DNA of 64,000 nt from Aquificales bacterium (GCA_027036735.1 JALWDU010000092.1:6788-70787), one strand, 5' to 3'; shown: positions 7,165 through 46,954, counted from the stretch's first letter. The notes: a model not told the origin generated them from the letters alone. A program made the numbers and translations.

Positions 7165-7264
7165 AGACGTGGTTCTCTTTATAGGTGTCTTTGCCACCCT
7201 TGTGGGATTTGTGGTTTTAGCCCTCGCCCTTTGGGAGATAAAGAGAAAGAGAACAAACCCTTAA
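7154..7264 (+). CDS. possible 36-aa single-TM peptide
   Basis: My translation is MTFEDVVLFIGVFATLVGFVVLALALWEIKRKRTNP. A GGGAGG sits 8-9 nt upstream of the ATG. The ORF is too short to be sure. Confidence 0.25.
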   Translation: MTFEDVVLFIGVFATLVGFVVLALALWEIKRKRTNP

Positions 7265-8184: not shown

Positions 8185-8253
8185 AAAGACCTTTAAAGGG
8201 TGAAAGAGTGGAAAACCTCATGGGGGACTCGGTTTAAACAACCTACCCTTTAA

Positions 8254-10331
8254 GTGATGGGGAGAAAACCGAACCGCCTTATAAGGGAGAAAAGCCTATA
8301 TTTGAGACAGCACGCGTATAACCCGGTCGATTGGTACCCCTGGGGAGAGGAGGCTTTCGAAAAAGCCCGTAAAGAGGATAAACCCCTCTTTATCTCCATA
8401 GGGTATTCCTCCTGCCACTGGTGCCACGTTATGGAGAAAGAGAGCTTCGAAGACCCCGAAATTGCGGAAATCTTGAACAAATACTTCGTTCCCGTAAAGG
8501 TCGATAGGGAGGAGCACCCCGATGTGGACGCCTTTTATATGGATGCCTGCATAGCCCTAAACGGACACGGCGGCTGGCCTCTCACCGTTTTCGCCACCCC
8601 CGATAAAAAGCCCTTTTTTGTGGGAACCTACTTTCCCAAAGAGAGCCGTTGGGGTCGCCCGGGATTGAAAGAACTCCTGCTCTATATAGCCGAACTCTGG
8701 CAAAAGGACAGGGAAAAGCTCCTCTCCTCGGCGGAGAAAATCTTAAAAGCCCTCCGGGAGAGGAGGGATTACGCCCCACGCGGGGGAGCGAGCTTATCGG
8801 AAGATGTTTTGCACCTCGCTTTCGAACAGCTAAGGGCTATGTTTGACGAGGAGTTTGGAGGTTTCGGCGAAGCCCCCAAGTTTCCCACACCCCACAAGCT
8901 TATGTTTTTAACCCGCTACCACTACAGGTATAAAAACGGAGAAGCCCTAAAAATGGTCGATAAAACCCTCCTCCAAATGAGGTTGGGAGGTGTATACGAC
9001 CACTTGGGGGGAGGATTTCACAGGTATTCCACCGACAGGTATTGGCTTCTGCCCCACTTTGAAAAGATGCTCTACGACCAGGGGATGCTCATTTTCGCCT
9101 ACACCGAAGGGTATCAACTCCTAAAGAGAGACCTCTACGGGGAAACGGTGGAGGAGATTGTCCGCTATTTGGAGAGGGAAATGCTTTCCCCCGAAGGGGG
9201 ATTTTACTCGTCCCAAGACGCCGACAGCGAGGGAGAGGAGGGCAAATACTACACCTGGAGCTTGGAGGAACTCAAAGGTGTCTTGACCGAAGAGGAGTTC
9301 CAAATAGCAGTTAAAGTTTTCAATATCCACCCCGAGGGGAACTATTACGAAGAAGCCACCGGTAGGAGGACGGGAAGGAATATCCTCTATATGAAAAAAC
9401 CGACCGAAGACCTTTCGGAGAAACTAAACATTCCCAAAGACCGCCTGGAGGAACTCCTAAAGGGGATTAAGGAAAAACTCCTTAGGGAGAGGGAAAAGAG
9501 GGTTAAACCGGCTACCGATACCAAAATACTGACCGACTGGAACGGTCTCGTTGTAGCCGCACTCTCCTATGCGGGGCGACCCTCGGTAAAGATAGATGGA
9601 TAGAAACCGCCCGGAGGGCGGCGGATTTTATTTTGGAAAATCTATCCACCCCCGAGGGGAAACTCTTCCACCGGTACGCCGACGGAGAGGTTAAATACGA
9701 CGGGACTCTCGACGATTACGCCTACACCATTTGGGGACTTCTCGAACTCTACAAAGCCACCCTTGAGGGGAAATACCTAAAAAAGGCACTCCTCTTTGCG
9801 GAGTATCTAATAAAACACTTTTGGGACGAAAAAAACGGGGGATTTTTCCTTACGGCGGATTACAAAAAAGATATTCCCCTCCGAAAGAAGGAGTTTTACG
9901 ACGGCGCTATCCCTTCGGGGAACTCGGTTGCGGTTTATACCCTCATAAGGCTCGGTAGAATTTTGGGAAGGGACGACCTCGAAAACTACGGCAGACGCAC
10001 CCTCGAGGCGATGGCGCCCCACATAGCCCGCGCACCGGTAGGCTACACCTTCGCCCTTATAGCACTCGACCTCGCCGTAAACGGGTCTAAAGAACTTTTC
10101 ATAGTCCCCGCAAAGGACGACGATAGCTATAGAGACCTACTAAAGGAGATAAATCCCAAATTCCTCCCCGACCTGGATTGGTTGAAAATAGATGAAACCG
10201 TAAAAGGTTTGTCGGAATTCCTCAAAAACCTCCAACCGAAGGGTGAAAAAACGACCTATTACCTATGTAGGAACTACGCCTGCGGGCAACCTACCGACGA
10301 TTGGAAAGGAATTCTGAAGGAACTTCTTTAG
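8254..10331 (+). pseudogene. thioredoxin-domain protein (DUF255/YyaL-type) interrupted by a -1 frame change
   Basis: ORFs 8254-9603 and 9633-10331 are the N- and C-terminal parts of one ~680-aa protein. The N-part reads ..[29 protein letters not shown]. The other frame is open from 9507 and reads [24 protein letters not shown].. The switch must lie between the G4 run at 9573-9576 and the stop at 9601-9603. Confidence 0.8.
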
Positions 10332-33894: not shown

Positions 33895-34120
33895 GTTGTT
33901 ATGTCCCTAGAAGGGATTGAAACTCGGGAAAAAGACTCTGAAGTCTTTTTCTTTTTTCAAGTTGTTATGTCCCTAGAAGGGATTGAAACAAAATAGAAGA
34001 GAACACTTGTGAAAGTTGTGTTCTTGTTGTTATGTCCCTATAAGGGATTGAAACACACCTAGACACCGATAAAAATCCTTTGTGCCCTTTCGTTTTTATG
34101 TCCCTATAAGGGATTGAAAC
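33895..34120 (+). CRISPR. CRISPR array 1 (4 repeats of 29 nt, 3 spacers of 36-37 nt)
   Basis: Repeats lie at 33895, 33961, 34026 and 34092. The consensus is GTTGTTATGTCCCTA[G/T]AAGGGATTGAAAC, and the last copy begins GTTTTT. Confidence 0.93.
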
Positions 34121-34215: not shown

Positions 34216-34566
34216 TTAACAATTGCCCTTCAAAACCTCAAAAGGGTTTAAATCCCCGTTCCAAAGTTCGGGGTGCCACCACCAGTGGGTTTTCGGTCTA
34301 TCGGGGTCGTAGGTTAGGGGAATATAACCCTCTTTTAGGAATTCTTTAGCGTTCTCCCACAAAAGGGTTAAAGCTTTCCTCTTTTCCTCACAGGGGATAT
34401 TGGGGTCTTCTATATCCTCGCTGAAGGTTTCAAACCAAGACCACTCCTCACCGGGGATAAAATCTCCACTTTTCCACGCTTTGGGGTTGAAAAGTCCTAT
34501 ATACCAAAGGTTGGGAAGTTCTTTTTTTAGTTCCTCTTTGGGTGGGTTGGGTTTCATATCCTCCAT
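34216..34566 (-). CDS. hypothetical Trp-rich protein (116-122 aa)
   Basis: ORF only (..WSWFETF..THWWWHPELWNG..). The track start at 34584 is TTG; the first ATG is at 34566. Divergent from cas3. Confidence 0.45.
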   Translation of the reverse strand: MEDMKPNPPKEELKKELPNLWYIGLFNPKAWKSGDFIPGEEWSWFETFSEDIEDPNIPCEEKRKALTLLWENAKEFLKEGYIPLTYDPDRPKTHWWWHPELWNGDLNPFEVLKGNC

Positions 34567-34606
34567 TGTCAGAATTTCATACAATCCACTGTTTGTTATA
34601 AATACT

Positions 34607-36970
34607 ATGCAAATGCCCCAAAGCGGTATCTATTCCCACCCAAATGTCCTTTTGGAGGAACATATAAACAACGTTCTTTCCATATATAGGACATTGAAAA
34701 ATGACCTTTTACCCTTTTGGGGCGGTGAAATTTTAACAACCTTGGAGGTTTCTATAGCCCTCCACGACATAGGTAAGGCTACCGAATACTTTCAGAGGAA
34801 GCTAAGGGGTGAAAGATTAAACTCCAAAGAGAGGAAATATTCCCAACACTCACTTTTTTCGGCTGTTTATACTTTCTACAAGCTCCATAAGGAGTTTTTT
34901 GAAGATTTCGAATACCCCCTATTGGGGTATTTCTTGGTCGCAAATCACCACGCGGGTATTTTAAAAAGTTTCAAAGACCTCTTAAAGTTGTCGGAAGATG
35001 ATATAGAAACCTTTTTGGTTCAACTCAATTCTATAAACCCCGAAGAGGTAAACCGCTTTGTTGAAAACATAGACCTACCGAGGGAGTGGAAGGAAAAGCT
35101 AAAACTCCAAAGGGAGGAATTTGAAACCTTCCTAAAAGAGGAACTTTTAGACCTCTTTGACGACCTCTCTTGGGATTTGGAGGATTACATAAAACCCTCT
35201 TTGGAGAGATACATAACCTTGCTTTACCTCTTTTCGCTTTTGGTCGATGCCGACAAAACCGAGGCGGGTGCTAAGGGTGTTCCCCACTTTTTGGGGAGGA
35301 GAATAGATATTCCACCCTCTTTGGTCGAGGAGTATGTAAAGACCCTTAAGGGGAACTCACCGATTAACAGACTCCGCCAAAGGGTTTTTGAGGAGGTTAA
35401 GACCTTTGAGGTGGATACAAAGGAACATTTTTACACCCTAACCTTGCCAACCGGTTATGGAAAAACCCTTATAGGTCTCCTATTCGCTTTAAAACTCAAA
35501 AGGGAGATAGAGAGGGAAACCCAAAAGGAGGTTAGGCTAATTTACTCCCTGCCCTTTTTGAGTATCATCGACCAAAACACAAGGGTGTTCGAAGAGGTTT
35601 TGAAACCTTTGGGGGAAAGGGTTGTCGTAAAGCATCACCACCTATCGCTGGGAGAATATTTGAAACAACAGGAGGAGGATTACGAGCTAACCCGCATTTT
35701 GGTCGAAGCTTGGAACGCCCCGGTTGTTATAACTACCTTCGTCCAGCTGTTCCACACCTTGTTGGCTTATTCCAATTCCAACGCGAGGAGGTTAAACAAA
35801 CTCTCAAATGCCGTCGTTTTGGTTGACGAGATTCAGGCTCTCCCGCCGAAGTATTGGTATCTGTTCGAAAAATACCTAAAAGAGGTCGCAAAAAATCTAA
35901 ACACCTACTTTGTATTTATGACCGCTACTCAACCCTATTTGGTGGAGGGAAGGGAGGTTATCCGAAATAGGGAGACCTATTTCAATTCGGTAAACCGCTA
36001 CGGGGTTTCTTTAAAATTGGAAGAGACACTCTTTGGGGAATTTTTGGAGAGTTTAAAGCCCGAAGAGGGAACCCTTTACATCCTCAACACCATTAGGAGT
36101 TCCCAAGAGGTCTATAGGTATTTGACGGAGGGGCTTGGCATTCCGAAGGGGGAGGTTGCATACCTATCGGCGAGTCTGACACCTAACGACCACCGAAGGC
36201 GGCTTATTGATTTGAAAAAGGGAAAATACCGCTTCGCGGTTTCAACCCAAGTCGTGGAGGCGGGGGTCGATATAGACTTTCCCCGCGTGGTTAGGGATTT
36301 CGCACCGCTAGATGCCCTAATCCAATCCGCCGGTAGGTGCAACCGAAACTTTACCTTTGAAAAGGGAACCCTTGAGGTGGTCAATCTAATAGATAAAAAC
36401 GATAGGAGGTTTGCTTCCTATATTTACGACCCTATTCTGTTAAAAACCACCTTGGAACTCCTCCTAAAGGAGAGACCGAAAGATGAAAGGGAACTGACGA
36501 GGTTGGTTGAAAAGTATTTCGACCTATTAAAGGAGCTAAAAAGCAAGGACACTTCAAAGGAGCTTTTGGAAAAAATCGAAAATTTGAACTTTAAGGATAT
36601 TCCTTGTAGGAAGGAAAAAGATAAGAACAAAAAGGAGAAAACCAAAGGTTTTTGTTTCATCGAAGATGAACCCTACAAGGCGGACGTATTCGTTCAGACC
36701 GACCAAAGGGCGGTCGAAATTTGGAACACCGCAAAGGGTATCATTCGAAAATTGAGGGAGAAAAAACTAACCCTCTTTGAGGCAAAGAGGGAATTCGAAA
36801 AACTCAAAGGGGACTTCTACGGGTATGTCATCTCCGTGAGGGTGGATAAGAATAAACCACCCTTCGATGAGGAGCTAAATACCTACTATGTCCCTATAGA
36901 GGAACTCGAAAACTATTACGACCCCGAAATAGGTTTTATCTTTGAGGGAGAAACTTATGGAGAGTATTGA
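34607..36970 (+). CDS. cas3: CRISPR-associated helicase/nuclease Cas3 (HD plus helicase, 787 aa)
   Basis: HD region (ALHDIGKATEYFQ..VANHH) and helicase motifs (LTLPTGYGKT, VLVDEIQAL, SAGRCNR). The start is taken at Met 70 of track ORF 34400-36970. Confidence 0.9.
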   Translation: MQMPQSGIYSHPNVLLEEHINNVLSIYRTLKNDLLPFWGGEILTTLEVSIALHDIGKATEYFQRKLRGERLNSKERKYSQHSLFSAVYTFYKLHKEFFEDFEYPLLGYFLVANHHAGILKSFKDLLKLSEDDIETFLVQLNSINPEEVNRFVENIDLPREWKEKLKLQREEFETFLKEELLDLFDDLSWDLEDYIKPSLERYITLLYLFSLLVDADKTEAGAKGVPHFLGRRIDIPPSLVEEYVKTLKGNSPINRLRQRVFEEVKTFEVDTKEHFYTLTLPTGYGKTLIGLLFALKLKREIERETQKEVRLIYSLPFLSIIDQNTRVFEEVLKPLGERVVVKHHHLSLGEYLKQQEEDYELTRILVEAWNAPVVITTFVQLFHTLLAYSNSNARRLNKLSNAVVLVDEIQALPPKYWYLFEKYLKEVAKNLNTYFVFMTATQPYLVEGREVIRNRETYFNSVNRYGVSLKLEETLFGEFLESLKPEEGTLYILNTIRSSQEVYRYLTEGLGIPKGEVAYLSASLTPNDHRRRLIDLKKGKYRFAVSTQVVEAGVDIDFPRVVRDFAPLDALIQSAGRCNRNFTFEKGTLEVVNLIDKNDRRFASYIYDPILLKTTLELLLKERPKDERELTRLVEKYFDLLKELKSKDTSKELLEKIENLNFKDIPCRKEKDKNKKEKTKGFCFIEDEPYKADVFVQTDQRAVEIWNTAKGIIRKLREKKLTLFEAKREFEKLKGDFYGYVISVRVDKNKPPFDEELNTYYVPIEELENYYDPEIGFIFEGETYGEY

Positions 36971-37457
36971 GGGGATTAACGGCACCTTGGTGTGGTATTT
37001 TCACATCTGCCCCCGACAGGTTTGGTATATCTACCACGCCCTTGCGGGGGAACAGGATAACGATTTTCTCCTCTTGGGAAGGCATATCCACGAAGTCTTT
37101 TACAGGAACCGCAAAAGGGAGCTATTAATAGACAACACCATTAAGGTGGACTTTATCGAAGAAGAGGGACTTATAGCGGAGGTCAAAAAGAGCTCCAAAA
37201 ACCTAAAGAGCGCCCTGATGCAACTTGCCTTTTACCTCTATTATTTCAAACACAAAAAGGGTGTAGCCCTATCGGGGAAACTCCTAATCCCCGAAGAGAG
37301 GAAACAAATAAAAGTCGAACTTACGGAGGAACTGGAAAGGGAACTTGAAGAAACCTTTAGGGGGATTAGGGAAATAATTTCTAAACCCCTTCCACCGCCA
37401 CCCCGCAAGATTCCCCACTGCAAGAGGTGCGCCTATAGGGAGATTTGTTGGGTTTAG
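36957..37457 (+). CDS. cas4: CRISPR-associated exonuclease Cas4
   Basis: One N-terminal Cys (HICPRQ) plus a C-terminal CKRCAYREIC, and an EVKKS-type nuclease motif. The ATG at 36957 is preceded by GAGGGAG; the track start at 36942 is TTG. Confidence 0.85.
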   Translation: MESIEGINGTLVWYFHICPRQVWYIYHALAGEQDNDFLLLGRHIHEVFYRNRKRELLIDNTIKVDFIEEEGLIAEVKKSSKNLKSALMQLAFYLYYFKHKKGVALSGKLLIPEERKQIKVELTEELERELEETFRGIREIISKPLPPPPRKIPHCKRCAYREICWV

Positions 37458-37468
37458 ACTAACCTTTA

Positions 37469-38464
37469 ATGGCAAAAAATATCTATATACACAGCAGCGG
37501 TTCCTTAAAAAGAAAGGACAACACCCTAAGGTTGGAACTCCAAGATGGAACAAAAAGGGTCATACCGATAAACGACGTATCCGCTATTTACGTTTTCGGA
37601 GAATTGGAACTCAACAAAAGGGTTTTGGAATTTTTAACAACCCACAAGGTGGCAATTCACTTTTTCAACCGCTACGGGTATTATGTTGGGAGCTACTACC
37701 CAAGGGAGTATCTAAACAGCGGTTTAATGACCCTAAAACAGGCGGAACATTACCTCTCACCCGAAAAGAGGCTCTACTTAGCCCGCTCCTTTGTGGAAGG
37801 AGGACTGAAGAATATCCTCAAAACGCTCAAATATTACCGCTCCAAAAGGGGTAAAAACGAACTGGAAACCACCGAAGGTTTTATAAAGGCAAAGATTGAA
37901 GAACTCAAAGGGGTTGATTCGATAGAACAGATAATGCAAATAGAGGGTTCGGCGAGGGAGGAGTACTACAAGAGCTGGAAACACATAATCGAAAACCCGG
38001 AATTTGTTTTCGAAAAGAGGGAAAAGAGACCGCCGACCAACGAAATAAACGCACTTATCAGCTTCGGGAATAGCTTGGTTTACACTTTGACGCTTTCGGA
38101 GATATACCATACATATTTAGACCCGAGGATTGGATACCTGCACGAGACCAATAGGAGGAGCTTTTCCCTCAATTTGGATATTGCGGAAATTTTTAAACCC
38201 ATTATGGTCGATAAGGTTATCTTTACCCTCCTAAATAGGGGACTTCTAAAAACTCCCGACCACTTTGAGGAGGCTATAGGAAACACCTACCTAAACGAGA
38301 AGGGGAGAAAAATCTTTATAAAACACTTTGAGGAGAAGCTGAAAACAACCTTTAAACATCCCAATTTGGGTAAGATTTCCTACAAGAGGTTAGTTCGCTT
38401 GGAGTGTTATAAGCTCTACAAACACTTTTTGGGGGAAAGGGAATATCAACCTTTGGTGGTTTAG
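37469..38464 (+). CDS. cas1: CRISPR-associated endonuclease Cas1
   Basis: 331 aa; ..REKRPPTNEINALISFGNSLVY..LDPRIGYLHE..SLNLDIAEIFKP.. Confidence 0.95.
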   Translation: MAKNIYIHSSGSLKRKDNTLRLELQDGTKRVIPINDVSAIYVFGELELNKRVLEFLTTHKVAIHFFNRYGYYVGSYYPREYLNSGLMTLKQAEHYLSPEKRLYLARSFVEGGLKNILKTLKYYRSKRGKNELETTEGFIKAKIEELKGVDSIEQIMQIEGSAREEYYKSWKHIIENPEFVFEKREKRPPTNEINALISFGNSLVYTLTLSEIYHTYLDPRIGYLHETNRRSFSLNLDIAEIFKPIMVDKVIFTLLNRGLLKTPDHFEEAIGNTYLNEKGRKIFIKHFEEKLKTTFKHPNLGKISYKRLVRLECYKLYKHFLGEREYQPLVV

Positions 38465-38479
38465 AGGAGGTTTAAACCT

Positions 38480-38743
38480 ATGTTTGTGGTTTTGGTCTAT
38501 GATGTAAAACAGAAAAGGGTCGGGAAGGTTCTAAAAATCTGCAGGAAATATCTAACCCACGTCCAAAATTCGGTGTTTGAAGGAGAAATAACACCCGCAA
38601 AGTTGAGAATTCTTAAAGACGAACTCAAAGGGGTTATAGACGAGGATTACGACAGCGTGATTATATACAAATTCCGCCTACCCGCAGAGGAGAGGGAGAT
38701 TTTAGGAATAGAACCCCCTTCGGCGGAGGATATTTTCTTTTGA
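38480..38743 (+). CDS. cas2: CRISPR-associated endoribonuclease Cas2
   Basis: 87 aa; MFVVLVYDV..KICRKYLTHVQNSVFEGEIT. Confidence 0.9.
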   Translation: MFVVLVYDVKQKRVGKVLKICRKYLTHVQNSVFEGEITPAKLRILKDELKGVIDEDYDSVIIYKFRLPAEEREILGIEPPSAEDIFF

Positions 38744-38770
38744 TACCACTTTGGGTTGCCTTTATAATGG

Positions 38771-39002
38771 CAGACTCAAGATTTGATGTCAAGTTATGGA
38801 TTAAAATTTGACAAAAATATTTTGCAGGATTAGAGGAAGTTAAGGAAAGAGGCTAAAAAGGCATACTCCAGGAAGTTAATGTCAATATAGGGTTGACCTT
38901 TTAAGTCAATTTTTGCTTGACCCCTTTGGGTGTTTTGGGTATAGTTCTAAACCCGTAAAGTGGAGGGTTCTTTGGCAACTTAATAGGGTTGGACTCAAGT
39001 TG
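38771..39002 (+). promoter_or_regulatory. CRISPR leader 2, with a putative promoter
   Basis: Paralogue of leader 1. TTGACC (38917-38922), 17 nt, then TATAGT (38940-38945). Confidence 0.55.
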
Positions 39003-39296
39003 GTTCTTATGTCCCTATAAGGGATTGAAACACAGCATCGAAAGCACCATCTCCCCATTCAGTTGCAGGTTCTTATGTCCCTATAAGGGATTGAAACCCC
39101 TCGCCACCGAACACGAAGCCGACGCGGGGCTCATGTTCTTATGTCCCTATAAGGGATTGAAACTCATTCCAGTTGAATCCGTAAAAGTTGCAAACCAAAG
39201 AGTTTTTATGTTCCTAAGAGGGATTGAAACTCGTGAAACCCAGGTCTTCTAAGAATTTAGCAAGGAAGTTTTTATGTTCCTAAGAGGGATTGAAAA
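39003..39296 (+). CRISPR. CRISPR array 2 (5 repeats, 4 spacers of 37-38 nt)
   Basis: Repeats lie at 39003, 39069 and 39135 (GTTCTTATGTCCCTATAAGGGATTGAAAC), and at 39202 and 39268 (degenerate GTTTTTATGTTCCTAAGAGGGATTGAAA[C/A]). Confidence 0.93.
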
Positions 39297-39321
39297 GAGG
39301 CTGAAACTTAGGTTTTGGTTT

Positions 39322-39879
39322 CTAACCTATGAGGGCGTATAGGACCACAAACTTGCTATCTTCAAAGAGAGGTTTAAATCCGTAGTTTTTATAAGCCTTA
39401 ACAAGTTTAGGATAACCTTCTATTTTTGCAACATCTAAAGTTATCAAACGTGTTCCCACTTTTTCGTTGATTTCCTTACAAATTGCAAAAGCAAACTTTA
39501 AAAATTTTTCCAAAGGAAGTTCCTCTTTTGGAACGCCATCTGCTCTACAGATTTGAGCTATAAAGAACGAATGTATATGGTCTTGTTCCTTTCTGAAACC
39601 TTTGAAAATTTCCTTTCTTTTAGTTTTGCTTAAAGTTTCCGGTAAAGTTATGGAGCGAATTCCCAAAGTTATAAATCCCCTCAAATAAGGTTTTTCGTTC
39701 CCTATCCAAAGGTAGGTTCTGACTACATCCCTTTTGTCAAAGGTCCAAGCCGATTTTTTCAAAAAGTTCTCCACTAAAGGATGCCGTTTGCACGAGAAAT
39801 CTTTTAGAAGAAACTCAAACTCATTTTTCGTTAAGTCTTTCAGCTTCCATGGCTCTTTTAAGAAATTGTTTGAGCTCAT
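39322..39879 (-). CDS. GNAT-fold acetyltransferase-like protein (TacT-like toxin?), tentative
   Basis: 185 aa with a strong GGAGGAGAGG RBS. FLKKSAWTFDKRDVVRTYL resembles the FLxxxA....SRTYV segment of TacT-type GNAT toxins, and the C-terminus ..LVKAYKNYGFKPL is GNAT-like. No clear Q/RxxGxG/A motif. Confidence 0.45.
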   Translation of the reverse strand: MSSNNFLKEPWKLKDLTKNEFEFLLKDFSCKRHPLVENFLKKSAWTFDKRDVVRTYLWIGNEKPYLRGFITLGIRSITLPETLSKTKRKEIFKGFRKEQDHIHSFFIAQICRADGVPKEELPLEKFLKFAFAICKEINEKVGTRLITLDVAKIEGYPKLVKAYKNYGFKPLFEDSKFVVLYALIG

Positions 39880-40048
39880 TTAACCTCTCCTCCATTTTCT
39901 TAGGGTCGTTAAGAGTCCCAATCCATTCTTCAACTTCCGGGTCCGTTTCGAATTTTATAGGTTCCTCGTGTTCCAAAGCCCACATAAGCTTTTCCCAAGC
40001 CTTTTCGTCAACTTCTATGTGAAGTCTAAGTATTTGTTTGCCCTCCAT
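39821..40048 (-). CDS. hypothetical 75-aa protein upstream of the GNAT-like gene
   Basis: ORF only. It overlaps the GNAT-like ORF by 59 nt and has no obvious RBS. Confidence 0.3.
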   Translation of the reverse strand: MEGKQILRLHIEVDEKAWEKLMWALEHEEPIKFETDPEVEEWIGTLNDPKKMEERLNELKQFLKRAMEAERLNEK

Positions 40049-40168
40049 AGGGAAAAAATTATGGCGGAAAGCGTTTAAATTTTAGAGATGGCACAGAATT
40101 CTAAGAAAAGTATGCTAAGCGAGTTTTTTTAAAGGTAATCCTTTATCGGGGAAGTTTTGAAGATGTAG

Positions 40169-40264
40169 GTTTTTATGTCCCTATAAGGGATTGAAACCGA
40201 TTTGGCTATCGAAGGTGGGACTGAAACCTCTATTAGCTTTTATGTTCCTATGAGGGATTGAAAC
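40169..40264 (+). CRISPR. mini-array 3 (2 repeats, 1 spacer-like 38-nt segment)
   Basis: Repeats at 40169 (GTTTTTATGTCCCTATAAGGGATTGAAAC, identical to the last repeat of array 1) and at 40236 (GCTTTTATGTTCCTATGAGGGATTGAAAC). The spacer itself contains GGGACTGAAAC (40217-40227), a 10/11 match to the repeat 3' end. Confidence 0.7.
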
Positions 40265-40624
40265 AGTTGATTTTTTCAAAATAAACTTTTCCACTCTCTC
40301 ATAGTATTCTTTAACCTTTTCCAAAACTACATCAAAGGAAACATTTTTTAGTCCAAGTTCGGGAACGGTGTAAAAACCGGGGATGGAAAAGTTTTTAGTT
40401 TTTTCAGAAAGATATTCCAAACCTCCTATAGGTCTATCGCCATATAGCTCTATATAAAGGTATAGAATTCTTCCCTTCTCGTCAGCGGCTAAAGAAAGTT
40501 CGGGGATATCTTCGACTAACTCTTTGTAAAGTTCCTCCGCTCGGTCAAAATCTTTGTCTTTAGCTTTATGACTATCAAGTTCTACACCATCTAAATAAGG
40601 CTCGGGGGTAAAGTGTAATTTCAT
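40181..40624 (-). CDS. hypothetical protein whose 3' end reads into CRISPR mini-array 3
   Basis: 147-aa ORF. The last ~28 codons (40181-40264) are the reverse translation of repeat and spacer sequence, so the native C-terminus is probably lost. Confidence 0.4.
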   Translation of the reverse strand: MKLHFTPEPYLDGVELDSHKAKDKDFDRAEELYKELVEDIPELSLAADEKGRILYLYIELYGDRPIGGLEYLSEKTKNFSIPGFYTVPELGLKNVSFDVVLEKVKEYYERVEKFILKKSTVSIPHRNIKANRGFSPTFDSQIGFNPL

Positions 40625-40641
40625 AACAATTTTAATATTAG

Positions 40642-40689
40642 GTTTTTAAGTCCCTGAAAAGTTAGATTTAAAAAGAAGGGGATTGATTA
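40642..40689 (+). repeat. degenerate CRISPR-repeat remnant
   Basis: GTTTTTAAGTCCCT (40642-40655) matches the repeat 5' half at 13/14 positions. AAGGGGATTGA (40676-40686) resembles the repeat 3' half. Confidence 0.45.
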
Positions 40690-40713
40690 GAGATTTTGAA
40701 GAGGTGGGCATAG

Positions 40714-41040
40714 ATGAAGGAATACGAAAAATTGCTTATAGATTACGCCAAATACTTAAGTATTATGAAAGATGAAGCAAAGGAGTATGCGAAGACGCTT
40801 TCAGGGGAAAGTTACTATCTCATAATTAACGACCTTCCCACCATAGAAAGGATGAAGCAGAGATTGTTAAAATTGCTCCCTAAAGCTCATCAAAAAGAAA
40901 TCCTTTCCAAATTAGCTAAAAATGAATTTGAAATTTATCGAATTCTGCAGAATACACCCTTAGCCAAACCTTTTGCGGAAGCGGTAAAGCTTAACCTTCA
41001 TCATCCATCGCCGGCCACCGTGGTAAAAGCCAAATCTTAA
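40714..41040 (+). CDS. hypothetical protein (108 aa)
   Basis: ATG with a GAAGAGGTGGG RBS and no recognisable motif. Confidence 0.45.
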   Translation: MKEYEKLLIDYAKYLSIMKDEAKEYAKTLSGESYYLIINDLPTIERMKQRLLKLLPKAHQKEILSKLAKNEFEIYRILQNTPLAKPFAEAVKLNLHHPSPATVVKAKS

Positions 41041-41042
41041 AC

Positions 41043-41426
41043 CTAATAATCCTCCCAACTTTCAACTTTCCATTTCGGTTTTTCCTCAAAAACCTCAAAC
41101 CTTTTGAGGTAGAAATTCCTTTCCAAATACCAAGAGGGGAAAAAGTACCACTTATCCCCTTCGGAGTAATCCCAAGAAAAACAAACCGCCGAAAAGGTTT
41201 TCATAAAATAAAAAGGCTCTAAAAGTCTTTCTATTTCCGAAAAGGGGAGTTCGTTAGCCCATTCCCTAAGGGTTTCGTCTTTTGCATCCGCAACTTTTGA
41301 GAGTATTTGAAGTAAAAATTCCTCCGAGAGTTTATCTTCCTTTAATTCCAAATCGGAAAAGGTTAAACCCCTTACCGCAACCCTTTCCTCGTAAGGAGAA
41401 GCCAAATACCCCAAAAGAACCAGCAT
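41043..41426 (-). CDS. hypothetical protein (127 aa), translationally coupled to cas6
   Basis: Its ATG (41424-41426) overlaps the cas6 stop TAA (41426-41428) as TAATG. No recognisable motif. Confidence 0.55.
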   Translation of the reverse strand: MLVLLGYLASPYEERVAVRGLTFSDLELKEDKLSEEFLLQILSKVADAKDETLREWANELPFSEIERLLEPFYFMKTFSAVCFSWDYSEGDKWYFFPSWYLERNFYLKRFEVFEEKPKWKVESWEDY

Positions 41427-42166
41427 TAAACCCTTATTTTTGCGGGCAAAACCATTCCGAAACCGGCGCTATTTTTCGCACCCAAACCGGTTTCAAATGC
41501 CAACTTCAGTACCTCTTTAGGGGCTTTTATCCTATATATCCCTTCCCAAGCCTTTATTAAGGTTCCTTTAAACACCACCTTTTTGAAATCCCTTCCTGAC
41601 ACCTTTACGGGTTCTATTTCTATTTCACCCTCAAAAGGTCTCCCATAAACGAGCATAAATTTCTTTTTAAGGTTTTCCCTTAAAAGTCTGTAAAATTCCT
41701 CCTCGTGAGGTGTTAGGTAGTTAAAAAACTTACTCCCCGGTTCGGTTTTATAGACCACTATAGGGGAAAGGGTTTTAACCTCAACCTCTTCGGGGATTTC
41801 TTCCAAAACTACCGCTTCCACATTTAGGAGCTCTAGTTTATTTTCACCCAAAAAGAGGTCTTTGTTTTCCAAAATCACCTTTCGGAGGGTGGAAATACTC
41901 ACCTCATTTTTGGGAGAGGCGAAATATATCCTAAATGTGGGTTTGTAATAGACATATTCGTTGTCCTTTTTGAGGAATTTCCCGAAAATTTTTGAGAACG
42001 TAAAGAGTTTAAACTTCCTCTTTCCGAGCTCGTAGCCCCTATCGTGCAAAAAGGTTGCGATTTGTTCGTCCATATTCTTGTAGAAGAAAGCCTGCAGTAG
42101 GCGGTTGTAATGTTTGGGAAGTTTCAAAGCCGCGCCTTCGGCGCGGAATACGAATTTCAAAATCAT
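41426..42166 (-). CDS. cas6: CRISPR-associated endoribonuclease Cas6
   Basis: 246 aa. The C-terminal glycine-rich loop ETGLGAKNSAGFGM and overall size are typical of Cas6. Confidence 0.88.
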   Translation of the reverse strand: MILKFVFRAEGAALKLPKHYNRLLQAFFYKNMDEQIATFLHDRGYELGKRKFKLFTFSKIFGKFLKKDNEYVYYKPTFRIYFASPKNEVSISTLRKVILENKDLFLGENKLELLNVEAVVLEEIPEEVEVKTLSPIVVYKTEPGSKFFNYLTPHEEEFYRLLRENLKKKFMLVYGRPFEGEIEIEPVKVSGRDFKKVVFKGTLIKAWEGIYRIKAPKEVLKLAFETGLGAKNSAGFGMVLPAKIRV

Positions 42167-42330
42167 AGTGTCAGATTTCTATCATACCGCCCGTTCTATA
42201 GTGACCTCCTCCCCACATCTTTGATGTGGGGCTTCCCGCTTCATCGTGGGCAGAGCCCACTCCACGGGCGTCACTTCCCCGCGGTCCACGGGTAGGGCAG
42301 ACTTTAGGCGGTCTGCCAGCGCCTTATTCT
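42150..42330 (-). ncRNA. putative TnpB guide RNA (omega/reRNA) scaffold overlapping the tnpB 3' end
   Basis: Called by analogy with IS200/IS605 TnpB elements. On the minus strand I see stems GGCAGAC..GTCTGCC (42286-42307) and CCCCACATC-AAA-GATGTGGGG (42211-42231). The extent is a guess. Confidence 0.25.
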
Positions 42331-43602
42331 TCTTTGCTAACTGCTTTAATCCAATCTTTAATATGTTCCACGCTCCATTTAAGTCTCTATCAATTTCTAA
42401 ACCGCATTTCGGACATTTATAAGTTCTCTCATTTAATCCAATTCGTTGTTTAAAACCACATCTACAGCAATTTTGCGTTGTTGCTTCGTATTTCGGCACA
42501 AATTCCACAAGGATAAGGGTCGCAAGGTATTTTAGCCTTGCAGTTATTCCCCCTATCCCTGTGTTTTGAACTTCTTTCCCAAACAATCCTTTGTGCCAAC
42601 CTTTTATGTCATCTCTTTGAACCGCTATAAACGGAAACCTCTTCAAGTAGCTTATTACCTTATTTATCGTATCCTTCCTTCTGTTTTTGATATATTCCCA
42701 TTCCTTCTGTATCAACTTTTTAACCTTTTGATAGTTTTTGCTCCCTTTCCTCTTTCTTACCAAAATCTTTTGCAACCTTTTAAGCCTCTTCGTTTCGGGA
42801 ATATACCACTTAAACCTCTCCCCCGTTGTTAAGGTTAGCTGGTATTTAATACCTAAATCTATACCTACTGGAATTGAAGTCTGTTTTTGCTTAATTTCCC
42901 TTAAAACTTCCTCTCTCCAAAGATAGCAAACCACATATAGATAAAAGCCCGAAGGCTTTTTAACCAGAAAAGCGTTTACAATCTCTGAATTTTTAGGTAT
43001 CTGATGCAATCCCAAAACTCTAAACCACTTTCTAATGCCTTGAACTTTAATTCTATTCCTTTCGAAGTCTATTTTGTAGGTAATCCCGAATTGCTTAAGA
43101 GGAATGCTTTTAAAATCGGATTTAAATTGGAGCTTTCCTACCTTATAACCTTGCTCTTTTAGAGTTTTTAAAGCTTTAAGGCTATTTTTAATCCTTTCAA
43201 TAATGCCTTGTTTAACTTGAGAACCTAAGAGTTTAAGTTTCCTTTTTTCAAAACCGTTAGGAGTTTTAATTTCTACCACTTTAAGTTTTTCGGATAGTTT
43301 GTTTAATCGGCTGTCAATATCTGCGATGAGGTAGTTATAGAACCATTTAGCCTCTAAGAAAAGTCTTTCTAAGGTTTTTATATCGGATTTAGAGAGGTTT
43401 TGGAGTTTTAGTTGGAAGACTTTGGGAGTTTGGAGTTTTCTTTTTTCCTTGGTTTGTTTAAGTGATTGCCTGATTTTTTCGGCTTTAGTCATAACTCCAA
43501 ACTCCCTTAAATAAGTATTTTAAAACCTATCGGCCGCCATTCATCCCCGCAAGTCGGATAGGGGACTTTCTGGCGTGATTTTCCGTAAATAGGAGCGGCA
43601 AA
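42167..43602 (-). mobile_element. tnpB-only IS200/IS605-like element (IS1341-type), ends not defined
   Basis: It fills the whole interval between the cas6 ATG (42166) and the cas8b ATG (43603). No tnpA is present, and I could not define the LE/RE hairpins confidently. Confidence 0.45.
42182..43492 (-). CDS. tnpB: IS200/IS605-family TnpB (OrfB) RNA-guided nuclease homologue
   Basis: 436 aa. RuvC-I VGIDLG, zinc finger CCRCGFK..CPKCGLEIDRDLNGAWNI, and a C-terminal tail typical of thermophile OrfB proteins. The RuvC-II position reads IAVQRDDIKGW. Confidence 0.9.
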   Translation of the reverse strand: MTKAEKIRQSLKQTKEKRKLQTPKVFQLKLQNLSKSDIKTLERLFLEAKWFYNYLIADIDSRLNKLSEKLKVVEIKTPNGFEKRKLKLLGSQVKQGIIERIKNSLKALKTLKEQGYKVGKLQFKSDFKSIPLKQFGITYKIDFERNRIKVQGIRKWFRVLGLHQIPKNSEIVNAFLVKKPSGFYLYVVCYLWREEVLREIKQKQTSIPVGIDLGIKYQLTLTTGERFKWYIPETKRLKRLQKILVRKRKGSKNYQKVKKLIQKEWEYIKNRRKDTINKVISYLKRFPFIAVQRDDIKGWHKGLFGKEVQNTGIGGITARLKYLATLILVEFVPKYEATTQNCCRCGFKQRIGLNERTYKCPKCGLEIDRDLNGAWNILKIGLKQLAKKNKALADRLKSALPVDRGEVTPVEWALPTMKREAPHQRCGEEVTIERAV

Positions 43603-45261
43603 ATGTTGGAAGCACTGGCACTTCTGGGTGAGGTTTTTGGAAAATTCACCCTTTGGGACGATTTTACAGCCGATTATATCCTCGTTTTGGAACTTGATAG
43701 AGAGGGAAACCTTAAGGGGATAGATTTGGAGGAATTTACCAAAGATAGGGTGGAAAAGTATCTTTACAAAAATAGCGGAACGTCTAATCCACCCTCTTGG
43801 ACTCCCACCTTGGCTTTAAACAAAAAGGAACCCGTTAAGAGTTTGAGACTTTTGAACCGACAACTGAAGGAGCTTTTGGGAATAGAACTCAAAAGGGATT
43901 TGGAAAAATTGAGCGAACTGATAAAGGAAACCATTAAAGAGATTCCTAAAAGAAAGACGATTTTTATAACGACCAAAATTGAAGGGAAATATTTGGGGGA
44001 AATACCGGAAGTGGTTGAAAATTTAAAAGAATTCCTCAAAAGGAGATTTGAGGAAAGGGCGACCGATGGGGTTTGTTCGCTCTGTTTAAAACCAACAAAA
44101 GTAGTCGGAAAGGATAATTTCCCCTTTAAGTTCTACACCTTGGATAAACCCGGTTTTATCCACGGAGGGTTTAGAGATGAGACCTACGTTTTCCCCCTTT
44201 GTTGGGACTGCATTCAAAAGGTCAAAGAGGGCGGAAACTACGTAAGGGAAAAACTAAACTTCTCCTTCACAAAAGGGGTTAACTTTTATTTAATTCCCGA
44301 ATTGGTTAGGGAGGATAAAGAAACCCTTAAGAGGTTGGTTGAGAAAATTCTCCAACCCCAAGCGGAAACAAAAGATGGACTGACCGAAGAGAGGGCAAGT
44401 TCGCTAATAGCCGACGAGAGGAGGATTTTCAATCGAATTTCCAAAGAGGGAAACTACTTCTATATCCACCTATTGTTTATAACTAAGGAACAATCGGCGG
44501 AGAGGATAGACCTATACCTGCAGGGGATTTATCCATCGAGGTTAAAAGACCTCTTTGAGTGCAAAAGGAAAGTTGAAAACCTCTTGGAGGAGGAGATTAC
44601 CTTTAACTACTCCACCGCAAGGGAATTTTTTGAAGACAGCACCTTTTACGAATACATCTATTCCACCTTTAGGGGTGTTGCCTTCGACAAAAACACCCTT
44701 TTGGGGAACGTTTTGGAAAAATTGCGGACTATTAGTGTTGAGGTTGAAAAGGGAGAACCCCTATCGAAGTTGGTTTTTGCCATTAAAAGAGCCCTTGCGG
44801 TTTATCTGTTCGAACTATGCACCCGAGGAGGTTTGAATATGTCGGAACAAGGTAGGGAAACCTTGGAGGGATTTTTAAACCAATTTCCCCACCTCAAGGG
44901 GGATTTTGAAAAGGGAGTGTTCCTTTTGGGGGTTTTGACCCAAACTTTATTGGAAAAACAATACGGGGAGAGGGGAAATAAGCCATTCCTCAAAAAGTTA
45001 AAAGGTTTCAAACTCCACCTTGAGGACTTTATAGGACTTTACCCCGAACTTAGGGCGAAATTTGAGGAATACGACTTTTGGGGAAAGAGAATTGCATTCC
45101 TATTTGAGGAAGCTGGTAGATACCTCCTAAGGTCTCCCGAAAAGCCGAAGGTCTCCCAAAGGGAGGCGAATTTCATCTTTGCAACCGGTATGGGTCTGAA
45201 AAAAGAGGTTTTCGACCTCTTAAAGGAGGAAGAAAAAGAGGAGGTGGCTCAAAATGGGTGA
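43603..45261 (+). CDS. cas8b: type I-B large subunit Cas8b (TM1802-like)
   Basis: 552 aa with an AGGAG RBS and Cys pairs CSLC..CWDC. It lies immediately upstream of cas7-cas5. Confidence 0.78.
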   Translation: MLEALALLGEVFGKFTLWDDFTADYILVLELDREGNLKGIDLEEFTKDRVEKYLYKNSGTSNPPSWTPTLALNKKEPVKSLRLLNRQLKELLGIELKRDLEKLSELIKETIKEIPKRKTIFITTKIEGKYLGEIPEVVENLKEFLKRRFEERATDGVCSLCLKPTKVVGKDNFPFKFYTLDKPGFIHGGFRDETYVFPLCWDCIQKVKEGGNYVREKLNFSFTKGVNFYLIPELVREDKETLKRLVEKILQPQAETKDGLTEERASSLIADERRIFNRISKEGNYFYIHLLFITKEQSAERIDLYLQGIYPSRLKDLFECKRKVENLLEEEITFNYSTAREFFEDSTFYEYIYSTFRGVAFDKNTLLGNVLEKLRTISVEVEKGEPLSKLVFAIKRALAVYLFELCTRGGLNMSEQGRETLEGFLNQFPHLKGDFEKGVFLLGVLTQTLLEKQYGERGNKPFLKKLKGFKLHLEDFIGLYPELRAKFEEYDFWGKRIAFLFEEAGRYLLRSPEKPKVSQREANFIFATGMGLKKEVFDLLKEEEKEEVAQNG

Positions 45262-46219
45262 GAAAACCCTATTTCCTACAAAGGGACAAAACCCCGAAGG
45301 GCAAACTATTAAAAGAAGGGAATACCTATTCCTCTACGACGTTAAGAACGCCAACCCCAACGGCGACCCGCTTGACGAAAACAAGCCGAGAATGGACGAG
45401 GAAAGCGGTAAGGTACTGGTTACCGATGTGAGGCTAAAGAGGGTTATAAGGGACACCCTCGAGGAGCTCGGAGAGTGTGTTTTCCTCTCAAAGGAGAGGG
45501 TTTTGAAGGACGACCAACAGAAGAAAACGAGGGATGAACTCCTCAAAGAGTTTGGAAACGACCCCTTTAAAGCCGTTGAGAGTTGCATAGATTTAAGACT
45601 CTTTGGGGCAACCTTTTCGGTGAAAAATAACAACTTCTCCCTAACGGGACCCGTTCAGTTCAACTTCGGATATACCCTCCACAGGGTTGAGCCGAAATTG
45701 ATAAAGGGAACGACCATCCTCCCCTCCAAGGAGGATAAAAAACAGGGAACCTTTACCGAAATGTGGATTATCCCCTACGGGCTTATAGTCTTCTACGGGG
45801 TGGCTAACCAGTTCGCCGCAAAGGATACCGGTCTGACCGAAGATGACCTAAACAAAATGGCTAAGGCTATGTGGCTCGGGACAAAAGCCTCCACCGATGT
45901 GCTATCCCACTCCAAAATGGGGCACTCCCCGAGGCTCCTCATAGAGGTGGTTTACAAAGATGGTGTTAAAACCCAAATGGGAGAGTTGGACGCCCTCGTA
46001 AGGGTTGAGGTAAAAGGCGATAAGACCGAAGAGGAAGTTAGGGATATAGAAGACCTCGTGGTGGATTTGTCGAGGCTCAAAAAGAGGGTAGAACGCTATA
46101 GGGACAAAATTGAGAAGGTTCGCTACGCTATTGACGACCGAATAGAGCTGAAGCAACCCCTCGAGGAGGTTTTCGAAGGTATCCAGTTAGAGGAATTCGA
46201 TTGGTTTGAAGAGGTTTGA
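45254..46219 (+). CDS. cas7: type I-B Cas7 (Csh2/DevR family)
   Basis: YDVKNANPNGDPLDENKPR signature. Confidence 0.9.
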   Translation: MGEKTLFPTKGQNPEGQTIKRREYLFLYDVKNANPNGDPLDENKPRMDEESGKVLVTDVRLKRVIRDTLEELGECVFLSKERVLKDDQQKKTRDELLKEFGNDPFKAVESCIDLRLFGATFSVKNNNFSLTGPVQFNFGYTLHRVEPKLIKGTTILPSKEDKKQGTFTEMWIIPYGLIVFYGVANQFAAKDTGLTEDDLNKMAKAMWLGTKASTDVLSHSKMGHSPRLLIEVVYKDGVKTQMGELDALVRVEVKGDKTEEEVRDIEDLVVDLSRLKKRVERYRDKIEKVRYAIDDRIELKQPLEEVFEGIQLEEFDWFEEV

Positions 46220-46222
46220 CCT

Positions 46223-46954
46223 ATGAGGGTGGTCGTTTTCGATATTTGGGGAACCTTCGCCCACTTTAGGAAGTTTTGGACTACCTCCTCCTCCTTGAGT
46301 TATCCCTTTCCACCTCCTCCCACCGTTAGGGGGATTTTGGGTGCGATTTTGGGTTTCCGTAAAGAGGAATATATAAGAAAAACCGAACCTTTTAAGGTTG
46401 GGGTGAGGATATTGAATCCCGTTAAGAGGTTAAAGGTAAGTTTGAACTTGATAGACACCAAAAGGTTGGGAACCGGTTTTAATAACCTCGCGAGGAATAT
46501 AAGGAAAAACGGAATTCTCCACACCCAAGCGGTGGTTGAAATTTTGAAAAACCCCAAATATAGGATTTATGTATCCTCCGAAGACCCTAAATTGTTGGAG
46601 GATTTAGAGGAAACCCTTAAAGGGGAGGAAAATGTTTATACAATCTCCCTCGGGTGGGCTAACTTTTTGGCTAAATACTCCTATAAAGGAGCTTTTGAAG
46701 GGAAATTTATTGAGACCTCAAAGAGGGTAGATTCGGTTATTCCGGTCGAAAATGCCCTAAATTTGGATTTTGAAAGGGAAAATCCCCAATACCTTGCAAG
46801 GGATAGAATACCTTTAAAACTCGCAGAGGATAGGAAACCTCTAAATTACACCTCGGTGGTCTATTCTTTAGACGCAAAACCTTTAAAGGGAGAATTTAAA
46901 AACTTAATAGAACTCCAAAAGGAAGAGAAAGAAATTATTCACCTATTCGGTTAA
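46223..46954 (+). CDS. cas5: type I-B Cas5
   Basis: MRVVVFDIWGTFAHFRKFWTTSSSLSYPFPPPPTVRGILGAILG N-terminal Cas5 signature. Confidence 0.87.
   Translation: MRVVVFDIWGTFAHFRKFWTTSSSLSYPFPPPPTVRGILGAILGFRKEEYIRKTEPFKVGVRILNPVKRLKVSLNLIDTKRLGTGFNNLARNIRKNGILHTQAVVEILKNPKYRIYVSSEDPKLLEDLEETLKGEENVYTISLGWANFLAKYSYKGAFEGKFIETSKRVDSVIPVENALNLDFERENPQYLARDRIPLKLAEDRKPLNYTSVVYSLDAKPLKGEFKNLIELQKEEKEIIHLFG

Follow-up and report, generated by a model that had tools for sequence, protein, structure and literature searches.

A type I-B CRISPR array in a 64,000-nt stretch of DNA from an Aquificales bacterium (GCA_027036735.1 JALWDU010000092.1:6788-70787; referred to as the window) contains two gene-sized pieces of DNA in slots between its repeats. 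Comparison with donor loci shows that the first of these, fragment 1 (872 nt, 39297-40168), is, by its sequence, a complete operon for a GNAT toxin-like protein and its putative antitoxin, copied from an island of genes or a mobile element in other vent Aquificales. The second, fragment 2 (377 nt, 40265-40641), is, to judge from its homologues, a copy of a phage-associated gene of 123 residues and a gene relic rather than a working cassette. An earlier reading made without database searches (the sequence-only reading) had proposed two gene cassettes; the first is the toxin-antitoxin operon, but the second is a decayed gene fragment. Coordinates are positions in the window on one strand, L numbers designate comparison loci or contigs, and P numbers designate homologous proteins.

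Architecture of the Array

The array, designated array 2, belongs to a type I-B system comprising cas8b/Csh1, cas7/Csh2, cas5b, and the rest of the cas set, and it has both the repeats and the cas genes and leader of a type I-B array. Seven full repeats of 29 nt (R1, 39003; R2, 39069; R3, 39135; R4, 39202; R5, 39268-39296; R6, 40169-40197; R7, 40236-40264) and one terminal remnant (R8, 40642-40661) lie on the plus strand. R1 to R5 enclose four ordinary spacers of 37, 37, 38, and 37 nt (39003-39296), and R6, the 38-nt spacer S6, and R7 form a second regular block (40169-40264). The slots of the array therefore hold five ordinary spacers of 37-38 nt, the 872 nt between R5 and R6, and the 377 nt between R7 and R8. 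A search of the window with the 29-nt consensus, allowing up to 3 mismatches, gave 8 matches as compared with 0 expected from shuffles, in agreement with the repeat positions and segment lengths of the sequence-only reading; matches of the repeats to Rfam CRISPR-DR2 were weak. The spacers of this repeat family (n = 47) are 35-48 nt long, and 872 and 377 nt are extreme outliers. The two segments are not canonical spacers because of their length. One spacer of 48 nt, about 11 nt above its neighbors, is present in the ordinary array of L010 (4647-4694) and hints that length control in the lineage is not perfectly strict.

R1, R2, and R3 have the sequence GTTCTTATGTCCCTATAAGGGATTGAAAC, R4 and R5 have GTTTTTATGTTCCTAAGAGGGATTGAAA(C/A), and R7 is GCTTTTATGTTCCTATGAGGGATTGAAAC. 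R6 is the consensus of the repeat family and is the same as the last repeat of array 1, the other array in the window. The final base of R5 is A in the window and is a point change, because the R5 of L022 ends in C. The variant ATGTTCCT, previously described as common to the repeats on both sides of fragment 1, is indeed found in R4, R5, and R7 (R6 carries ATGTCCCT), but its sharing means little, as the same variants occur mixed in the ordinary arrays of relatives. The mosaic of variants was also considered as a sign of array fusion, and this idea was dropped since L026-L028 mix R7-like and R6-like variants within an ordinary array.

The repeat remnant that had been placed at 40642-40689 is shorter than proposed. 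Its first 20 nt, GTTTTTAAGTCCCTGAAAAG, are derived from the repeat, but the rest, TTAGATTTAAAAAGAAGGGGATTGATTAG, is flanking sequence that is conserved in L010 without an adjoining repeat, and homology to the L010 flank restarts at 40662. R8 thus consists of GTTTTTAAGTCCCTGAAAAG joined to the conserved flank TTAGATTT. The terminal repeat of L026-L028 has the same form, with the 5' part of the repeat followed by TTAG. The conservation of the flank in L010 and the form of this terminal repeat identify R8 as a degenerate terminal repeat, and fragment 2 therefore fills the last slot of the array.

Spacer S6 (40198-40235) contains GGGACTGAAAC, a 10/11 match to the 3' end of the repeat, of which ∼0.007 cases would be expected among 8 spacers; this sequence may have come from a different CRISPR array or be left over from an old rearrangement. 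A search for S6 in the JGI metagenomes, made to find a pre-insertion array, did not find it. Four spacers that were compared with IMG/VR in a search for the protospacer adjacent motif (PAM) had no matches, and no protospacer for any of the 47 spacers of the repeat family was found in the retrieved loci.

Origin and Ends of Fragment 1

In BLAST comparisons, window positions 39301-40171 are 87% identical in nucleotide sequence to L011 over 871 nt and 79-80% identical to L003, L004, L006, and L012, and fragment 1 is colinear with these donor loci on the minus strand. When the junctions are compared base by base, AAC is the sole overlap between repeat and donor sequence at R6, and homology stops 0-4 nt (GAGG) from R5. 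The sequence CTGAAAC near R5 was examined as a duplicated repeat end and rejected, as it is donor-derived. On the donor side, the left end of the fragment falls within the last ∼55 nt of a preceding gene for 169-172 residues, and the right end is ∼20 nt past the toxin stop codon, just before the donor terminator hairpin; the donors are still homologous to one another past both ends. Thus the ends of fragment 1 (GAGGCTGAAACTTAGGTTTTGGTTTCTAACCTATGAG and AAGGTAATCCTTTATCGGGGAAGTTTTGAAGATGTAG) have no significance in the donor yet fit the array exactly, as the ends of a spacer do. Like a canonical spacer, the fragment is of foreign origin and has its junctions at repeat borders. The sequence 5' of the fragment site in the donors is TTA in L011 or TTG in L006.

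A search of 5.8 billion proteins with the 185-residue protein encoded by fragment 1 returned only close relatives. The donor contigs (L003, L004/5, L006, L011, L012/13, and L025) have paired genes for 70-75 and 183-185 residues among many small open reading frames (ORFs) on the same strand. Repeat-like sequence (up to 8 mismatches in 29) was not found in the donor loci, an absence that is not absolute given that the contigs are partial. No relatives of the operon were found in IMG/VR. Fragment 1 has no terminal inverted repeats, and neither fragment contains a transposase. Transposons or insertion sequences (IS) were accordingly rejected as an identity for the fragments; the ends of fragment 1 also fall in sequence that is continuous in the donors.

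The small ORFs of the donor islands each have a strong GGAGG ribosome-binding site and are separated by a palindrome, TTAGCAC-N17-GTGCTAA, in a layout that resembles integron cassettes with no integrase in view. There are 13 exact-pattern copies in 7 donor loci and 0 in the 64-kb window. They include L003 976-1006, 2624-2654, 3726-3756, and 4464-4494; L004 1260-1290; L006 2747-2776 and 3983-4013; L011 32-62 and 594-624; and L012 702-732 and 2407-2437. A degenerate copy is present on the minus strand of fragment 1 (40088-40118), ∼55 nt upstream of the antitoxin start. The palindrome is short, with GTT/AAC ends outermost, and does not have the form of attC. Integron gene cassettes were rejected as an identity for the fragments, because there is no tyrosine recombinase at the locus and the palindrome does not delimit the fragment. 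In L003 (1-5315), a cassette block that includes the toxin-antitoxin pair occurs twice, ∼3.2-3.5 kb apart and with 78-93% identity, and the second toxin gene is cut to 93 residues; the doubled block could be either a tandem duplication or two diverged neighboring copies.

Fragment 1 Genes for a GNAT Toxin-like Protein and a Putative Antitoxin

Fragment 1 carries two overlapping genes on the minus strand. One (39322-39879) encodes a GNAT toxin-like acetyltransferase of 185 residues and has the ribosome-binding site GGAGG; the other, upstream (39821-40048), encodes a putative antitoxin of 75 residues and overlaps the toxin gene by 59 nt. The sequence-only reading had described a GNAT-like gene with a strong ribosome-binding site and a small upstream ORF, and its guess that they form a toxin-antitoxin pair is supported by the homologies of the larger protein and by the constant co-inheritance of the smaller gene. 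The 185-residue protein matches the acetyltransferase family phrog_1758 in PHROG (E = 2e-22). A profile search of 1.84 billion representatives identified 648 relatives, from which a 62-sequence family profile was built with the window protein as its first row. Compared with the PDB, this profile matches essentially only type II GNAT toxins with E values from 1.8e-13 to 2.8e-8, namely AtaT (6ajm, 6gts, and 7chd), TacT-type toxins (5fvj, 6g96, and 7ak7-9), and KacT (5zgn and 5xun). By itself, the window protein had no match in Pfam or NCBIfam, and a phmmer search of the PDB with it also found nothing. Its AlphaFold model is of low confidence (mean predicted local distance difference test score, pLDDT, 57) but has a GNAT-like topology, and nearly all of the top Foldseek matches are GNAT enzymes. 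Tyr163 is at least 90% conserved in the 62-sequence alignment, and its column is matched to the FY..GF motif in chain 9ilr_A. An acetyl-CoA loop of the usual form, Q/R-x-x-G-x-G/A, cannot be recognized (RADGVPKEELPLEKFL). Distant relatives (∼30%) annotated as acetyltransferases are found on small Acinetobacter plasmids, on Clostridium botulinum plasmids, and in prophages.

A gene for 70-75 residues that overlaps the toxin gene is present upstream of it in every locus examined, and in the one plasmid of the distant relatives that was checked, p94-2-p3 of Acinetobacter indicus, there is a small ORF upstream of the acetyltransferase gene. The AlphaFold2 model of the 75-residue protein has a coil at residues 1-14 followed by three helices (helix, helix, and long helix). 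This predicted layout is compatible with a ribbon-helix-helix (RHH) protein and does not prove one. The 75-residue protein had no match in Pfam, the PDB, or Foldseek searches, no detectable homology to DUF1778 or RHH proteins, and no relative outside its narrow family. The toxin part of the assignment as a GNAT toxin-antitoxin system is well supported by homology, and the upstream gene would be the antitoxin. The pair is similar to the GNAT/RHH type II systems (TacAT, AtaRT, KacAT, and ItaRT) in its profile homology, in the Tyr at the FY..GF position, in the overlapping small upstream gene, and in the distant relatives of its toxin on small plasmids and prophages. It differs from them in that the toxin lacks a Pfam GNAT match and a recognizable acetyl-CoA loop and the partner lacks detectable DUF1778/RHH homology.

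The antitoxin is 84% identical to that of L011, with a nearly identical C-terminal helix. The canonical antitoxin ATG (40031-40033, after GGAGGG), which is kept in L022, reads ATA in the window, and an in-frame ATG remains five codons upstream. Relative to L011, the toxin and the antitoxin have ratios of non-synonymous to synonymous substitution rates (dN/dS) of 0.047 and 0.087, respectively; much of this divergence may predate the capture. The coding differences between the window and L022, which has the same fragment between repeats, are 8 synonymous and 6 non-synonymous, and so few non-synonymous differences have a probability of 0.01 under neutrality (P = 0.01). On these counts, the module is constrained while inside arrays, and its state in the window genome is less certain.

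Fragment 2 Is a Decayed Gene

Fragment 2 is related on the minus strand to a family of genes for 122-123 residues. Over 40286-40629 it is 83% identical in nucleotide sequence to L007 and L008, in which the homologue is in a chromosomal context. Other relatives are in L009, a phage-like contig with capsid and scaffold genes, and in L021, an IMG/VR contig. At each end, 12-20 nt are not assignable to the donor. The fragment begins 17 nt before the ATG and lacks a promoter and the ribosome-binding site that is seen in L007. The homologous proteins P0009-P0013 have 104-123 residues (122-123 in four of the five) and a strongly conserved C-terminal motif, and an otherwise invariant Pro is changed in the window copy. 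A 2-nt deletion near 40295 shifts the reading frame, and the resulting 147-residue ORF (40181-40624, minus strand) consequently reads through R7 and the 38-nt spacer S6 into R6, as the sequence-only reading had noted in describing an ORF that ends inside repeat and spacer sequence.

Relatives with and without the Inserts

Among the species-representative genomes, the closest is L010, a metagenome-assembled genome of an Aquificales bacterium with a Cas1 that is 94% identical to that of the window; near-identical contigs come from hydrothermal-vent metagenomes. L010 has six repeats with spacers of 36-48 nt between the same cas2 and downstream genes, with flanks 91-95% identical to those of the window, and contains neither fragment. 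L026, L027, and L028 have identical twelve-repeat arrays with spacers of 35-40 nt at the same locus, and their cas region is 93% identical. Because their arrays are identical, these three are counted as one lineage, and the four relatives represent two or three distinct lineages. The uninterrupted arrays in these relatives, together with the occurrence of homologues of the fragments elsewhere without repeats, indicate that a pre-existing array received the inserts. One ancestral array with later insertions had been proposed, to be refuted by relatives with these genes at this position and no flanking repeats; the relatives show the opposite, an array without the genes and the genes elsewhere without repeats.

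The junctions of fragment 1 recur in independent assemblies. L001, an ENA assembly, is identical to the window across the array, and the joins from R5 through fragment 1 to R6 were also assembled in Logan contigs of two runs (L002 and L023). R5, fragment 1 with the same junctions, and a repeat like R6 are also present in L022 and L023 (98% identical) and in L024 (92%). In these three the R6-like repeat ends in GAAAA and is followed by sequence found after the terminal repeat of L010, and S6, R7, and fragment 2 are absent. There the toxin-antitoxin unit fills the last slot of the array, and the gene downstream of it is an allele that has diverged (48% amino acid identity). The unit is shared by these populations and stably inherited. 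Two histories fit this arrangement: loss of S6, R7, and fragment 2 by recombination between repeats, or movement of the unit between arrays. The toxin gene of L024 follows the L022 pattern upstream and then, in the part corresponding to window positions 39658-39808, has densely spaced and mostly synonymous differences, a pattern that points to gene conversion with a different allele of this toxin-antitoxin family.

Precedent for a Gene-sized Fragment between CRISPR Repeats

A literature search for over-long CRISPR spacers under that name found none. However, a fragment between repeats has been described in locus F of Sulfolobus solfataricus, where 899 bp of a pNOB8-like plasmid lie between two repeats, and the account of this locus gives no mechanism in its passage on the fragment (Lillestol et al. 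2009 via Garrett et al. 2015, PMC4390879). As described there, the two cases share gene-sized DNA of a mobile element (899 and 872 bp) between two repeats of an otherwise regular array. Locus F is archaeal, of type I-A, leaderless, and inactive, whereas the window array is bacterial and of type I-B. Unlike locus F as it is described, the window has two inserts, including an intact toxin-antitoxin operon of a known donor family, and relatives both with and without the inserts. By analogy, the window array is an instance of the rare kind noted before in locus F, with these features added. The length of the Sulfolobus insert is given as about 13 repeats plus 14 spacers, and a corresponding periodicity was considered for the window; it was dropped, since the 901-nt distance from R5 to R6 is equivalent to 13.5-13.65 units and not to a whole number.

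The arrangement also recalls integrons, in which arrays of captured genes, often for toxin-antitoxin systems or acetyltransferases, lie between repeated recombination sites close to a promoter. Unlike integrons, the window has neither attC sites nor an IntI integrase, and the captured genes are antisense to the array promoter.

Possible Routes of Entry

Any mechanism of entry has to meet four facts: ends that are arbitrary with respect to the donor, exact junctions with the repeats, two events, and normal spacer lengths in the relatives. We tentatively favor, at somewhat less than an even chance, insertion of over-long DNA as spacers by the Cas1-Cas2 adaptation integrase. Cas1-Cas2 would join the 3' ends of an over-long linear DNA to both borders of one repeat by the chemistry of normal spacer insertion, with the length ruler absent. 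This route would account for ends that are arbitrary in the donor and exact at the repeats and for the two occurrences. Casposases, which belong to the Cas1 family, integrate kilobase-sized DNA and duplicate the target site; casposons are like the proposed insertion in these respects, but the window has no terminal inverted repeats and no casposase.

Several observations weigh against insertion by Cas1-Cas2. We know of no experiment in which a CRISPR Cas1-Cas2 integrates DNA of hundreds of bp, and prespacers are measured. A cas4 gene is present and apparently intact, and in other systems the cas4 product sets spacer length. The repeats that flank fragment 1 are not identical, as they would be after a fresh duplication, since R5 and R6 differ at 4 positions; under this mechanism the mismatch is explicable only by age. 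No long inserts are found in the arrays of this repeat family in six JGI metagenome contigs (L015-L020), L010, or L026-L028. The TTA or TTG beside the donor site proves nothing, because no protospacer was found to fix the PAM. As to the function proposed for the pair, the window branch, when polarized by L011, has 4 non-synonymous as compared with 3 synonymous changes, including the loss of the canonical antitoxin ATG, and toxin-antitoxin function in the window genome is therefore not assured.

Recombination templated by spacers is the main alternative, possible but rather doubtful. In this scheme, DNA of the element, perhaps cut by interference, would recombine with two neighboring spacers on the same strand, and the spacer-repeat-spacer unit would be replaced by the whole stretch between the corresponding sites, which would be ∼800 nt apart on the same element for fragment 1 and ∼300 nt apart for fragment 2. 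After CRISPR had destroyed a plasmid bearing the toxin-antitoxin pair, the survivors would be cells that had captured the antidote, and fragment 1 is near a minimal functional operon, with 120 nt upstream and ∼20 nt downstream. Exact junctions adjacent to repeats and a colinear insert would follow with no new enzymology, and identical flanking repeats, which are not observed, are not required. The TTA 5' of the start of fragment 1 in L011 and a TTA 37 nt from its other end could mark two spacers that share a TTA PAM, but TTA is frequent in such AT-rich DNA and the true PAM is not fixed by any protospacer. Locus F of S. solfataricus, with its 899-bp insert, also has an ordinary spacer that matches pNOB8, whereas 0 of the 47 spacers of the window repeat family match the donor loci. 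The scheme demands two adjacent, correctly ordered spacers of one element on the same strand, twice in a short array, and homology arms of just ∼37 bp. For fragment 2, moreover, no selective value is evident, and the predicted inner position lacks a TTA.

Import of a ready-made unit of R5, fragment 1, and R6 from another array or strain by recombination between repeats, as in the exchange of blocks of spacers, is unlikely as the origin of the arrangement. The window and L022/L023 copies of the unit are 98% identical, and the adjacent downstream DNA is far more diverged (77% nucleotide identity over 49 nt and 48% amino acid identity); in L022 the unit adjoins the terminal repeat without S6, R7, and fragment 2, and the mosaic toxin gene of L024 suggests ongoing gene conversion. 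However, a deletion from R6 to the terminal repeat in an array like that of the window would equally give the layout of L022, and import explains the spread of the unit but not its first formation, so that the origin is pushed back one step.

It is improbable that the fragments are the decayed remains of mobile elements that once integrated site-specifically in a CRISPR repeat serving as attB. PhiAP1.1 of Streptococcus pyogenes has the repeat as its attachment site and, like the window inserts, is large foreign DNA flanked by repeats, with a preference for the terminal repeat and disruption of array transcription; it is, however, a whole prophage with an integrase and an attP that shares 8 bp with the repeat, whereas the inserts in the window are short, arbitrary pieces that lack an att core and an integrase (bioRxiv 10.1101/2020.10.09.333658). 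Each fragment adjoins the terminal repeat in at least one lineage. An integrated circle would start and end with attP flanks, but fragment 1 is one colinear donor stretch; there is no repeat-like core in fragment 1 or in any donor locus and no integrase in or near the fragments, and both flanking repeats are of full length with donor DNA from the first base outside.

Three further explanations have very little probability. R5 and R7 appear degenerate in the manner of terminal repeats, as they might if native chromosomal genes separated three distinct small arrays, but no leader precedes R6 or R8, donor homology reaches the first base of R6, the relatives have one continuous array with these genes absent from the site, and the R5 of L022 is a perfect repeat. 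Chimeric assembly at the 29-nt repeats is equally hard to credit: the window is from a metagenome-assembled contig and CRISPR arrays are difficult to assemble, but the same joins are present in the ENA assembly, which is of a sibling set of samples, and in Logan contigs from two runs, including the 98% and 92% versions, and the 29-nt repeat has unique sequence on both sides and can be spanned by single reads. The third is a safeguard of the CreTA type, in which a degenerate CRISPR RNA (crRNA) from the nearby repeats would guide the effector to repress the toxin promoter. The CreTA toxins attributed to work by Li et al. in 2021 reportedly make cells dependent on their own CRISPR-Cas. Toxins repressed by CRISPR are known (bioRxiv 10.1101/2024.01.05.574328), and the window is like these systems in having a toxin module among repeats or cas genes, here beside the odd two-repeat unit R6-S6-R7, and possibly in stabilization of the locus. 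However, CreTA toxins are controlled by a crRNA-like guide and the effector complex, whereas the window has a conventional protein toxin-antitoxin pair, with a toxin of a protein toxin-antitoxin family and its own antitoxin gene, and no spacer of either array, S6 included, matches 11 nt or more in fragment 1 (39297-40168).

Proposed Consequences of the Inserts

Under the favored insertion by Cas1-Cas2, the adaptation machinery of this lineage would occasionally integrate gene-sized DNA, the array would act as a site of gene capture, and the operon would be kept as a source of antidote on the destruction by CRISPR of related elements armed with toxin-antitoxin pairs and by a penalty on deletion of the array. 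We consider this extended proposal conceivable but somewhat unlikely. The toxin-antitoxin pair would be expressed from its own promoter, antisense to the array, and its transcript should run antisense into S4-S1, because the operon is oriented toward the array promoter and no longer has its terminator. As an addiction module, the pair would penalize loss of the segment by deletion between repeats, and it may also serve as an antidote against related elements that bear toxin-antitoxin systems or against their toxins. Fragment 2 is probably inert and decaying. Cuts by Cas6 at R5 and R6 would free an RNA of ∼900 nt that is antisense to the operon. Whatever lies downstream of the long antisense inserts in the array is probably expressed poorly or not at all, which may explain why the inserts are at its far end.

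If the proposal is true, immune memory and an antidote are stored in one place. Cas1-Cas2(-Cas4) is regarded as keeping spacer length under tight control, and the window presents natural inserts that are 10 to 25 times longer at exact repeat borders. They point to a failure mode of the integrase or to recombination leading from a spacer to a whole gene, and either would be horizontal gene gain via an immune locus. The case is tractable, as the donor sequence is known, relatives have ordinary arrays, sibling populations have the unit in another context, and the intact operon allows selection tests, whether for array addiction or for protection against plasmid addiction. For annotation, it cautions that an array can resume past an interruption of kilobase size and that an ORF extending across repeats can be a relic.

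Other Features of the Locus

The adaptation and nuclease module, cas3, cas4, cas1, and cas2, is on the plus strand 5' of the array 2 leader (34400-38743, with cas3 at 34400-36970 and the end of cas2 at 38743). In L027, a Y1-transposase and TnpB pair is found in the place expected for cas3. The leader (259 nt, 38744-39002, plus strand) lies between the cas2 stop codon and R1 and shares 75-87% identity with the array 1 leader and with those in L015-L020; a promoter scan located TTGACC-17-TATAGT (38917-38945), a promoter-like site, in it. Array 1 (33895-34120, plus strand) has four repeats, three ordinary spacers, and its own related leader. On the other side of array 2, cas6 (41426-42166) is on the minus strand and cas8b/Csh1, cas7/Csh2, and cas5b (43603-46954) are on the plus strand.

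A TnpB-like IS (42182-43492, minus strand) is inserted in the gap between cas6 and cas8b (42203-43584). L010 has a different TnpB-type IS on the opposite strand at the same point (6903-8378), and the site is empty in L026 (about 4269). It appears to be a place within the cas locus at which IS elements insert recurrently.

An ORF for 127 residues (41043-41426, minus strand) overlaps the cas6 stop codon (ATGA) and is kept in L010; it has no family match and seems reduced in L026, in which the cas6 call is 215 residues. It may be an unrecognized accessory gene of the type I-B locus. Pfam, NCBIfam, and PADLOC searches with the ORFs of 185, 75, 147, 108, and 127 residues gave nothing useful. The first gene 3' of the array (40714-41040) encodes 108-111 residues of no known family and is hypervariable among relatives. 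It is near-identical in L010 (region 4789-5742) and has about 48% amino acid identity in L022, where it follows the terminal repeat on the reverse complement, and the L026 allele (2985-3320) is also diverged at its 5' end. Only L010 has an extra ∼570 nt, with an ORF for 179 residues, between the terminal repeat and this gene.

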